Assembly (NCBI RefSeq): GCF_041886205.1
Contig: NZ_CP169029.1
Length of the DNA: 64,000 nt
Strand: one strand, 5' to 3'
DNA from: Escherichia coli
GTDB lineage: Bacteria; Pseudomonadota; Gammaproteobacteria; Enterobacterales; Enterobacteriaceae
Shown: positions 14,113-18,193 of the stretch, one piece after another
Layout of the letters: each line of letters opens with the position of its first letter
How positions within the stretch are numbered: the first letter of the stretch is position 1
Program-made: the position numbers and the translations under genes
Notes under the pieces: model-generated
The model's input: only the letters and a program-made list of their open reading frames with translations
Told to the model about the DNA's origin: nothing
The model's database searches: none

Positions 14113-16725
14113 TCAAGCCAGTGCTTTAGTTATCTTCTCGTACAGATCGCCAGAGAGATTTTCCAGCCCTTTCAACTGCTCCAGCGCCGCGCGCATTTTC
14201 TCCTGACGTTTGGCATCGTAACGTTTCAGGCGAATCAGCGGTTCAATCAGACGTGAAGCCACCTGCGGGTTACGGCTGTTGAGGTCGGTAAGCATTTCCA
14301 CCAGGAACTGGTAACCACTGCCATCGTCGGCATGGAACGCTGCCGGGTTGCTGCCCGCAAACGCGCCAATCAACGAACGAATACGGTTCGGGTTGCTCAT
14401 GGTAAATGAGCGATGCTGCAACAGACCACGTACCGTCTCCAGCACATTCGCCGCCGGGCTGGTGGCTTGCAGGATAAACCATTTATCCATCACCAGACCA
14501 TCCTGATGCCACTTGTCGTCGTACTCCTGCATCAGCGCGTCACGGCATGGCAGCTGTGCGGCAACCGCCGCAGAAAGCGCCGCCAGCGCATCGGTCATAT
14601 TGTTCGCTTCATGGAACTGCTTGCTCACCAGCACATCAGCCAGATGCGTTTCACCAAAAGCAAGGAAGCGCAGACAGGCATTACGCAGAGTGCGTTTTGC
14701 AATATCTTCATGCTCAACGCGGTACTCGCTCTGGTAATTCGCGTTGTAAATAGCCAGCAGCTCATCCGCCAGTTCAGTCGCCAGAGTACGAGTGAGTGCT
14801 TCGCGTACTTCGGCAATAGCAATCGGGTCGATGATATCGAACAGTTCAGCCATTTCATTGACGGATGGCAGAGTCAGAATTTCTGCCGCCAGTGCCGGGT
14901 CAATCTTCTCATCGAGCAGCACCGCGCGGAAGGCGTCGGCCACATGCACCGGCAGAGACAGCGGCTGCCCTTGCTGATGACGGGCGACGTTCAGCTTGAT
15001 GTAGGTTGCCAGCAAACTTTGCGCCGCATCCCAACGGGAGAAATCATTACGCGCATGACGCATCAGGAAGGTCAGTTGCTGATCGCTCCACTTATATTCC
15101 AGTTTCACTGGCGCAGAGAATTCGCACAGCAGCGCAGGCACCGGCTGGAAGTAGACATTATCAAAGACAAAGGTCTGTTCCGCCTGAGTGACGTTCAGCA
15201 CGGAATTCACCGGATGACCGCCTTTCTGCAACGGGATCACTTTGCCTTCGTTATCATACAGTTCGATGGCAAACGGAATATGCAGCGGCTGTTTTTCTGC
15301 CTGATCCGGCGTGGCTGGCGTGCGCTGGCTGATGGTCAGGGTGTACTGCTCGGTTTCCGGATTGTAGTCGTCTTTGACGGTCACAATCGGTGTACCGGAC
15401 TGGCTGTACCAACGGCGGAAATGGGAGAGATCGACATTCGACGCATCTTCCATCGCCTGCACAAAGTCGTCACAGGTCGCTGCACTACCATCATGACGCT
15501 CGAAATAAAGCTGCATCCCTTTCTGGAAGTTTTCTTCGCCCAATAGGGTATGGATCATGCGAATCACTTCCGCGCCCTTCTCGTAAACGGTCAGGGTGTA
15601 GAAGTTGTTCATCTCAATGACCATATCCGGGCGGATCGGGTGCGCCATCGGGCTGGCGTCTTCTGCAAACTGCAATCCGCGCATGGTGCGCACATTATTG
15701 ATGCGGTTAACTGCGCGGGAACCAAGGTCAGAGCTGAACTCCTGATCGCGGAAGACGGTTAAACCTTCTTTCAGGCTGAGCTGGAACCAGTCGCGGCAGG
15801 TCACTCGGTTACCGGTCCAGTTATGGAAATATTCATGGCCGATAACGCGTTCAATATCGAGGTAATCTTTATCGGTGGCGGTGTCGGTGCGGGCCAGCAC
15901 ATATTTGGAGTTAAAGATATTCAGACCTTTATTCTCCATTGCGCCCATATTAAAGAAGTCCACCGCGACGATCATATAGATGTCGAGGTCATACTCCAGG
16001 CCGAAGCGTTCTTCATCCCATTTCATGGAGTTTTTCAGCGAGGTCATCGCCCACGGCGCGCGGTCGAGGTTGCCGCGATCGACGTACAACTCCAGCGCCA
16101 CTTCGCGACCAGAACGCGTGGTGAAGGTGTCGCGCAGCACGTCGAAGTCGCCTGCAACCAGCGCAAACAGGTAGCACGGTTTAGGGAACGGATCCTGCCA
16201 CTGTACCCAATGGCGTCCGTTTTCCAGTTCGCCTTGCGCAACGCGGTTACCGTTGGAAAGCAGGAAGGGATATTTGGTTTTATCGGCTATAATTTTGGTG
16301 GTAAAACGCGCCAGCACGTCCGGGCGGTCGAGATAATACGTAATGTGGCGGAAACCTTCGGCTTCACACTGGGTGCAAAGCGCATCGCCTGACTGATAAA
16401 GCCCTTCCAGCGCAGTATTCGCCGCCGGGCTAATTTCATTAACGATCTTAAGCGTAAAACGCTCCGGCAAATTACTGATGACCAGTGCGCCCTCTTCTTC
16501 TTTCCAGGCGGTCCACGGCTCATCATTAATATGAACAGAAACCAGTTTAAGATCTTCGCCATCAAGACGAAGCGGAGTATCTGATGCACCATGACGGGCA
16601 GCCTGGCTGACCGCGGTAACGACCGTCTTTTGCGCGTCCAGGTCAAAGGTCAAGTCAATATCAGTAATCTGGTAATCCGGCGCACGATAATCGTGACGGT
16701 ATTTGGCTTGTGGCTGTTGAGTCAT
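14113..16725 (-). CDS. pepN: Aminopeptidase N
   Basis: 870-aa ORF with M1 zinc-peptidase motifs (GAMEN, HEYFHNWTGN...E). Confidence 0.95.
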   Translation of the reverse strand: MTQQPQAKYRHDYRAPDYQITDIDLTFDLDAQKTVVTAVSQAARHGASDTPLRLDGEDLKLVSVHINDEPWTAWKEEEGALVISNLPERFTLKIVNEISPAANTALEGLYQSGDALCTQCEAEGFRHITYYLDRPDVLARFTTKIIADKTKYPFLLSNGNRVAQGELENGRHWVQWQDPFPKPCYLFALVAGDFDVLRDTFTTRSGREVALELYVDRGNLDRAPWAMTSLKNSMKWDEERFGLEYDLDIYMIVAVDFFNMGAMENKGLNIFNSKYVLARTDTATDKDYLDIERVIGHEYFHNWTGNRVTCRDWFQLSLKEGLTVFRDQEFSSDLGSRAVNRINNVRTMRGLQFAEDASPMAHPIRPDMVIEMNNFYTLTVYEKGAEVIRMIHTLLGEENFQKGMQLYFERHDGSAATCDDFVQAMEDASNVDLSHFRRWYSQSGTPIVTVKDDYNPETEQYTLTISQRTPATPDQAEKQPLHIPFAIELYDNEGKVIPLQKGGHPVNSVLNVTQAEQTFVFDNVYFQPVPALLCEFSAPVKLEYKWSDQQLTFLMRHARNDFSRWDAAQSLLATYIKLNVARHQQGQPLSLPVHVADAFRAVLLDEKIDPALAAEILTLPSVNEMAELFDIIDPIAIAEVREALTRTLATELADELLAIYNANYQSEYRVEHEDIAKRTLRNACLRFLAFGETHLADVLVSKQFHEANNMTDALAALSAAVAAQLPCRDALMQEYDDKWHQDGLVMDKWFILQATSPAANVLETVRGLLQHRSFTMSNPNRIRSLIGAFAGSNPAAFHADDGSGYQFLVEMLTDLNSRNPQVASRLIEPLIRLKRYDAKRQEKMRAALEQLKGLENLSGDLYEKITKALA

Positions 16726-16943
16726 AAATAACCTTTAGCATCTTTTATAGAGTCTGGTGTTCAGTCTATTCCTGTTGCGTAAATCGCGCTATGCAGAATC
16801 TTCATCTTTTCAGGTACAAACGCCCTTATTGCTACATTTTTATAACATACACCGCGTAGTGCCATCGACCAGAAAGGTGGCATATGGTGTGATCGGGGTT
16901 CAATAAATTGCGAAACAAGGTATACTCCAGCAGTTCCTGAAGA

Positions 16944-16961
16944 TGTTTATTGTACTAAACG
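16944..16961. promoter_or_regulatory. Putative NadR operator (NAD box) at pncB promoter
   Basis: Palindrome TGTTTA-ttgtac-TAAACg about 30 bp upstream of pncB ATG, just downstream of a TATACT -10-like hexamer (16921-16926). Confidence 0.5.
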
Positions 16962-16990
16962 CTCCTGTACGAGGACGCTACTGCGCACCT

Positions 16991-18193
16991 ATGACACAAT
17001 TCGCTTCTCCTGTTCTGCACTCGTTGCTGGATACAGATGCTTATAAGTTGCATATGCAGCAAGCCGTGTTTCATCACTATTACGATGTGCATGTCGCGGC
17101 GGAGTTTCGTTGCCGAGGTGACGATCTGCTGGGTATTTATGCCGATGCTATTCGTGAACAGGTTCAGGCGATGCAGCACCTGCGCCTGCAGGATGATGAA
17201 TATCAATGGCTCTCAGCCCTGCCTTTCTTTAAGGCCGACTATCTTAACTGGTTACGCGAGTTCCGCTTTAACCCGGAACAAGTCACCGTATCCAACGATA
17301 ATGGCAAGCTGGATATTCGTTTAAGCGGCCCGTGGCGTGAAGTCATCCTCTGGGAAGTTCCTTTGCTGGCGGTTATCAGTGAAATGGTACATCGCTATCG
17401 CTCACCGCAGGCCGACGTTGCGCAAGCCCTCGACACGCTGGAAAGCAAATTAGTCGACTTCTCGGCATTAACCGCCGGTCTTGATATGTCGCGCTTCCAT
17501 CTGATGGATTTTGGCACCCGCCGCCGTTTTTCTCGCGAAGTACAAGAAACCATCGTTAAGCGTCTGCAACAGGAATCCTGGTTCGTGGGCACCAGCAACT
17601 ATGATCTGGCGCGCCGGCTTTCCCTCACGCCGATGGGAACACAGGCACACGAATGGTTCCAGGCGCATCAGCAAATCAGCCCGGATCTAGCCAACAGCCA
17701 GCGAGCTGCACTTGCTGCCTGGCTGGAAGAGTATCCCGACCAACTTGGCATTGCATTAACCGACTGCATCACTATGGATGCTTTCCTGCGTGATTTCGGT
17801 GTCGAGTTCGCTAGTCGGTATCAGGGCCTGCGTCATGACTCTGGCGACCCGGTTGAATGGGGTGAAAAAGCCATTGCACATTATGAAAAGCTGGGAATTG
17901 ATCCACAGAGTAAAACGCTGGTTTTCTCTGACAATCTGGATTTACGCAAAGCGGTTGAGCTATACCGCCACTTCTCTTCCCGCGTGCAATTAAGTTTTGG
18001 TATTGGGACTCGCCTGACCTGCGATATCCCCCAGGTAAAACCCCTGAATATTGTGATTAAGTTGGTAGAGTGTAACGGTAAACCGGTGGCGAAACTTTCT
18101 GACAGCCCTGGCAAAACTATCTGCCACGATAAAGCGTTTGTTCGGGCGCTGCGCAAAGCGTTCGACCTTCCGCATATTAAAAAAGCCAGTTAA
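16991..18193 (+). CDS. pncB: Nicotinate phosphoribosyltransferase
   Basis: ORF 16943..18193; start at ATG 16991 ([22 protein letters not shown]), 400 aa. Confidence 0.95.

Follow-up and report, generated by a model that had tools for sequence, protein, structure and literature searches.

Introduction

The operators recognized by the NAD repressor NadR share an 18-bp palindromic consensus, TGTTTA-N6-TAAACA, as described in two papers from 2008 (NAR; PMC2330245, PMC2330246). In Salmonella and Escherichia coli, NadR represses nadB, nadA, pnuC, and pncB, according to a 2025 study in mBio (PMC12421817). The repression of pncB is also listed in PMC5343134, which places the gene in the NadR regulon "in several enterobacterial genomes", and the nadR-pncB pair is entered as a "known regulatory interaction" in Supplementary Data 7 of PMC10505187. 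NadR proteins with a helix-turn-helix domain are confined to Enterobacterales (PMC12421817, PMC2330246). Genes of NAD synthesis and salvage, including pncB in some lineages, are also repressed by NiaR in Bacillus/Clostridium, by NrtR in many phyla, and by NadQ (PMC2330245, PMC2330246, PMC5343134). However, these proteins and their operator motifs are unrelated to those of NadR.

The operators of nadB and nadA-pnuC of E. coli and Salmonella are the closest described counterparts of the pncB site. They share with it the 18-bp palindrome, the repressor, and the NAD pathway, and their boxes are located, like that of pncB, at or just past the core promoter. The nadB gene of strain K-12 has a perfect box, TGTTTAGTAAATTAAACA, at positions -24 to -7 from the ATG, and a second box with two mismatches at -98, 74 bp upstream of the first, whereas the region upstream of the pncB box contains only a weak pseudo-box or half-site. 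The box of K-12 nadA, TGTTTAGCATATAAAACA, contains one mismatch and spans positions -90 to -73 from the ATG. The pncB box differs from the nadB and nadA-pnuC boxes in its conserved non-consensus final G, and the distance from the -10 hexamer to the box, as read from the sequence, is 17 nt at pncB versus about 10 nt at nadB. In its position alone, the pncB box is also similar to the lac operator O1, which is centred downstream of +1 within the polymerase footprint and at which repression blocks initiation or escape; the protein family and the ligand logic differ.

The NadR protein of K-12 contains HTH_3, CTP_transf_like (adenylyltransferase), and AAA_28 domains, as assigned by Pfam. Its gene lies outside the DNA analysed here; at the species level, it is carried by 5424 of 5426 complete E. 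coli genomes. The binding of NadR to DNA is reportedly the subject of a primary paper by Penfound and Foster from 1999. In the 2025 Salmonella study, gel shifts and qRT-PCR were performed on the nadB and nadA-pnuC promoters only (PMC12421817). In the literature searched in full text, nothing useful was found on the exact operator sequence, on the promoter of pncB, or on ChIP-exo, DAP-seq, or SELEX experiments with NadR. The control of pncB by NadR through a NAD box is already known and belongs to textbook regulation; it is not a discovery of this analysis. Here we determine the position of the pncB box relative to the promoter and its conservation, and evaluate other explanations for the palindrome.

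Organization of the pncB-pepN intergenic region

The window, by which we mean the whole 64,000-nucleotide stretch of E. coli DNA that was analysed, contains the pncB gene (positions 16991-18193, plus strand), which encodes a nicotinate phosphoribosyltransferase of 400 amino acids (RefSeq annotation; Pfam NAPRTase, 5.7e-94). The divergently oriented pepN gene (14113-16725, minus strand) was identified by its Pfam aminopeptidase M1 domain. The two genes are separated by 265 bp (16726-16990), in agreement with the first-pass annotation of this DNA, the gap being delimited by the pepN ATG at 16725 on the minus strand and the pncB ATG at 16991. A 1-kb stretch of the window has a match in all but one of the 5426 complete E. 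coli genomes (5425), where it is annotated as pncB/pepN. The list of open reading frames has pncB begin at an in-frame ATG further upstream, at 16943, which gives a frame of 416 residues. This codon was rejected as the start of pncB because it is located only 10 nt from the 5' end of the transcript, because most other genera have TTG at this position, and because the frame is not kept between genera owing to a 1-nt indel just in front of the true ATG, which is reflected in the location of the box at -46 or -47.

The intergenic region differs from that of K-12 MG1655 by two substitutions, at 16825 and 16859, and by no indels; the promoter and the box are unchanged. Since the only two substitutions are distant from these elements, data obtained for K-12 can be transferred to the window. 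Positions in NC_000913.3 are equal to 1007347 minus the window position, and those in version 2 (NC_000913.2) are 777 lower. The local order of elements upstream of pncB is ...GGTTCAATAAATTGCGAAACAAGG TATACT CCAGCAG TTCCTGAAGA TGTTTA TTGTAC TAAACG CTCC...CACCT ATG.

Position of the NAD box relative to the pncB promoter

The NAD box TGTTTATTGTACTAAACG (TGTTTA-TTGTAC-TAAACG) spans positions 16944-16961 and was assigned as an 18-bp NadR operator based on its match to the consensus and its conservation. Its half-sites, TGTTTA (16944-16949) and TAAACG (16956-16961), are separated by the spacer TTGTAC (16950-16955). Eleven of the twelve positions specified by the NadR consensus match, and the single mismatch is the final G. 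The palindrome, which was also reported by a pattern search, and the TATACT hexamer are located at the positions given previously. The pncB ATG at 16991 stands 30 nt after the end of the box, as had been estimated.

The table of K-12 transcription starts by Kim et al. (2012) contains one start of pncB, at position 989637 of NC_000913.2 on the minus strand, which is supported by 180 reads and followed by a 58-nt 5' UTR; the upstream sequence listed for it ends with GGTATACTCCAGCAG (PMC3415461, Table S1). This start corresponds to the G at position 16933 on the plus strand of the window. Counted from it, TATACT (16921-16926, plus strand) occupies positions -12 to -7 and is thereby identified as the -10 hexamer, and the box extends from +12 to +29 with its centre at +20.5. 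The comparison with mapped starts, which the first-pass annotation had proposed as a check, revealed that the palindrome is close to the promoter: the start is located 7 nt past TATACT, and the box begins 11 nt after it, inside the 58-nt leader (16933-16990, plus strand) defined by the mapped start. The palindrome had been described as overlapping the pncB promoter. This holds for the footprint of RNA polymerase, which in the open complex extends to about +20, but not for the -35 and -10 hexamers, as the box is located in the initial transcribed region.

The hexamer TATACT is present in all 81 loci compared (see below) and is invariant in the aligned promoters. The -35 element of pncB, selected by its spacing to the -10 hexamer, is probably TTCAAT (16899-16904, plus strand) with a 16-bp spacer, or else GTTCAA (16898-16903) with a 17-bp spacer. 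The candidate is a weak match to TTGACA, and the block from -35 to -28 has a conservation of 0.99. A scan of positions 16650-17060 for consensus promoters and terminators did not call any element. The -35 element is too weak for the rule of the scan, so that the mapped start and conservation were used to define the promoter. A conserved sequence, TGTGATCGGGGTTCAA (16888-16903), contains a perfect CRP-type left half, TGTGA, which overlaps the pncB -35 element and is centred at about -37.5. CRP is entered as a repressor of pncB among the known interactions in PMC10505187, and no response was measured by PPTP-seq (PMC10505187).

Conservation of the box across Enterobacteriaceae

The conservation set consists of 80 Enterobacteriaceae loci obtained from a genome scan with PncB, which together with the window makes 81. 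The NAD box is present at position -47 or -46 from the pncB ATG in 55 of them. The half-sites TGTTTA and TAAACG, with the non-consensus G, are the same in all 55 boxes, and variation is limited to three positions of the spacer. In contrast, the DNA between the -10 hexamer and the box is freely variable in its sequence, and its length ranges from 7 to 20 nt among the loci. Column conservation, calculated as the per-column frequency of the most common base, averaged, in the 22 distinct promoters that share the 17-nt distance between the -10 hexamer and the box, is 1.00 for both half-sites and 1.00 for the -10 hexamer, compared to 0.75 for the adjacent positions -6 to +11. Within the species, 5425 of 5426 complete E. 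coli genomes share the 121-bp promoter and operator stretch (16880-17000) at an identity of 99% or more, whereas for the surrounding 1 kb only 668 genomes reach this level.

The box is absent from Klebsiella/Raoultella, Trabulsiella, Atlantibacter, Franconibacter/Siccibacter, Mangrovibacter, Superficieibacter, and a few others, such as Pseudescherichia vulneris. Its absence from some genera is consistent with the statement in PMC5343134 that pncB belongs to the regulon only in several enterobacterial genomes. The UPGMA clustering used here, based on a single gene, is too coarse to tell how many times the box was independently gained or lost. Four loci of the Enterobacter group (L023, L024, L025, and L027) carry a 10-bp deletion, which shortens the spacer between the -10 hexamer and the box from 17 to 7 nt; the deletion corresponds to one helical turn and would shift the box to about +2 to +19. 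The locus of Enterobacter sp. Ag1 (L074) has no box in the leader and differs in its upstream DNA, where a perfect NAD box, TGTTTAGTACTCTAAACA, is located about 197 nt upstream of the pncB ATG (at about 1304-1321 of the locus).

The 3' part of the leader, AAACGCTCC..GAGGAyGCTACTGCGCACC (16958-16990), is conserved throughout the 81 loci, with or without the box. The right half-site is embedded in this block, as GGAAACGC-CC-GT-AGAGGAyGC, which is kept even where the box is missing. The retention of the block in box-less taxa may be the reason why the last base of the box stays G. The only sequence in the leader that is similar to a Shine-Dalgarno element, GAGGA (16971-16975), is located 15 nt before the pncB ATG, which is an unusually long spacing.

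Taken together, the match to the consensus, the mapped start, the conservation, and the literature indicate that the palindrome at 16944-16961 is very probably the NadR operator that mediates repression of the sigma-70 promoter of pncB. The site has the features of a NAD box: it matches the consensus, is located in the promoter region of a NAD salvage gene, and is conserved at orthologous loci.

Transcription of the divergent pepN gene

The 265-bp region was expected to hold the promoter of pepN as well, and starts of pepN have indeed been mapped inside it. Four weak starts are listed, which correspond to window positions 16832 (12 reads), 16756 (7), 16725 (7), and 16941 (5) (PMC3415461, Table S1). 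The minor start at 16941 on the minus strand has a 216-nt leader and is located 3 nt from the edge of the NAD box, on its outer side. TACAAT, the hexamer that probably serves as its -10 element, is the reverse complement of positions 16949-16954 and lies across the left half-site and the spacer of the box. NadR could silence the divergent transcript from 16941 as well. The pepN leader (16696-16823, minus strand) contains a sub-threshold match to the Rfam family RF02779, the PepN 5' UTR thermometer, with 21.3 bits versus a gathering threshold of 83 and E = 0.22.

An alternative explanation is that the element serves pepN, with TACAAT as the -10 hexamer of the start at 16941, and that the conservation originates from that promoter or from another regulator and not from the control of pncB by NadR. 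The start, with its 216-nt leader, is listed in a published table, and TACAAT would occupy positions -13 to -8 relative to it. Nevertheless, the start is represented by 5 reads versus 180 for pncB, and direct reading of the sequence upstream of it did not identify an acceptable -35 element. Moreover, the spacer that carries TACAAT varies among the loci (TTGTAC, ATGTAC, TTTTAC, ATCTAC, and CTGTAC), whereas the invariant parts of the box are the NadR half-sites. We consider it very unlikely that the element belongs to pepN.

Potential for RNA structure in the pncB leader

As the box is transcribed within the 58-nt leader of pncB, the palindrome might act as RNA, by forming a small hairpin of UGUUUA with UAAACG, closed by a U-G wobble at the final G, that would affect the stability or translation of the mRNA. 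The single-sequence minimum-free-energy fold of the leader pairs both arms, and the non-consensus G allows the pairing in RNA. However, the stem of the hairpin contains six weak pairs, and the leader does not fold better than shuffled sequences (z = 0.34), of which 124 of 200 have folds that are equally good or better. An alignment of 24 leaders gave a consensus fold that did not predict the hairpin and contained no compensatory changes, and no conserved structure or covariation was found in the 3' block of the leader in the same alignment. The rest of the leader is unchanged in taxa without the box, and a scan of positions 16600-17150 against Rfam did not identify any family over the box. A function of the palindrome in RNA is very unlikely.

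Occurrence of NAD-box matches by chance

The motif scan proposed in the first-pass annotation, performed with TGTTTA-N6-TAAACA and allowing at most one mismatch, found a single site in the 64-kb window, which is the pncB box. The number of such matches expected from shuffled sequences is 0.19, and 17 of 100 shuffled windows contain at least one; the box is therefore not significant across the whole window on sequence alone. When two mismatches are allowed, the window contains 10 matches versus 2.2 expected from shuffles. The nine matches other than the pncB box are found in coding or AT-rich sequence and were dismissed as a probable effect of base composition. The excess of these mostly coding or AT-rich matches shows that the shuffle null is optimistic and too generous to the motif. 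Within the 265-bp intergenic region, the expected number of matches with at most one mismatch is about 8e-4 (0.19 scaled by 265/64000). Position and conservation lift the pncB box above chance. The box escaped an inverted-repeat finder that used a 6-nt seed, as its arms share only five consecutive complementary bases and a mismatch.

That the box is a functionless AT-rich near-palindrome is extremely unlikely: shuffled windows with an equal or better match, the excess of two-mismatch matches in the real sequence, and the absence of a NadR response at pncB in the PPTP-seq screen would agree with it, but the box begins 11 nt past the start of a gene of a NadR-controlled pathway, its half-sites are invariant over 55 species while the flanks drift, and the same motif occurs at nadA and nadB.

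Possible second half-site and possible lineage-specific shifts

In addition to the NadR operator downstream of the start, the promoter contains a hexamer with the appearance of a NadR half-site. The sequence GAAACA (16912-16917) is located at -21 to -16, 3 nt upstream of the -10 hexamer, and forms the right end of a weak pseudo-box (16900-16917), the left part of which is provided by the -35 block. Among the 55 loci with the box, the hexamer at -21 to -16 is TAAACA in 50, GAAACA in four (Escherichia, including the window), and TAAACG in one. None of the 26 loci without the box has (T/G)AAAC(A/G) at this position, which is occupied by TAATCA and other sequences. The conservation of the hexamer is 0.96, compared to 0.80 for the neighbouring positions -27 to -22. 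The hexamer may be an auxiliary NadR half-site within the core-promoter spacer, or it may simply reflect a phylogenetic signal.

In Klebsiella, Raoultella, and Trabulsiella, an insertion of about 65 bp separates the -35 block from TATACT, and the downstream box is gone. In the loci concerned (L056, L061, L059, L048, L052, L055, L053, L034, and L037), these features are located at about -160 to -70 from the pncB ATG, which mostly corresponds to positions 1340-1430 of the locus. In the same three genera, the homologue of the pseudo-box is TGTTCAATATATTAAACT, which has two mismatches to the NadR consensus and is closer to it than the weak pseudo-box of E. coli. From these sequence comparisons, it is conceivable, although doubtful, that the pncB operator is bipartite and evolutionarily mobile, with two NadR contacts about 44 bp apart and a dominant site that differs by lineage. 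Such an arrangement would resemble the two boxes of nadB, which are 74 bp apart.

Proposed mechanism of pncB repression by NadR

Based on the structure of the promoter and the literature, the following mechanism of repression can be proposed. According to the literature, plentiful NAD leads to the binding of NAD-bound NadR to the TGTTTA-N6-TAAACA operators of nadB, nadA-pnuC, and pncB. At low levels of NAD, the ATP-bound protein leaves the DNA, in accordance with the ATP/NAD switch described for NadR (PMC12421817). A NadR dimer bound at +12 to +29 of pncB would overlap the downstream edge of the polymerase open-complex footprint. Such a dimer probably does not compete for the -35 and -10 hexamers but may hinder the binding of the polymerase, its isomerisation, or its escape from the promoter. 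Judging from the sequence, the downstream position and the final G of the pncB box would fit weaker repression than that of nadB, which has a perfect box. The arrangement had been interpreted as the one expected for the repression of NAD salvage by NadR, and this interpretation is supported by the match to the consensus, the identity of PncB, the published regulon, and the mapped start.

The dependence of pncB expression on nadR, which had been named as a further check, was addressed in a published CRISPRi screen, in which the knock-down of nadR was scored as giving no response of a plasmid-borne pncB promoter-GFP fusion; no nadA or nadB control is listed and the efficiency of the knock-down is unrated (PMC10505187). 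With M9 glucose as the medium, the fold-change value for pncB-GFP was 0.14; the values for LB and M9 glycerol were 0.10 and -0.13, respectively (PMC10505187, Supplementary Data 7). The position of nadR as the last gene of serB-radA-nadR is a further limitation of this screen.

Significance for the regulation of NAD salvage

The site itself adds nothing new to biology, since regulatory databases carry the control of pncB by NadR as a known interaction. The analysis contributes the precise placement of the box relative to the mapped start (+12 to +29) and a map of its conservation over 81 species. The pncB box serves as a calibration point, as it is a real regulatory element that was recognized from raw sequence and placed correctly. 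For NAD homeostasis, two aspects of the locus may be of interest: the lack of a response of pncB to the CRISPRi of nadR, and the possible auxiliary half-site together with a possible relocation of the operator in particular lineages.
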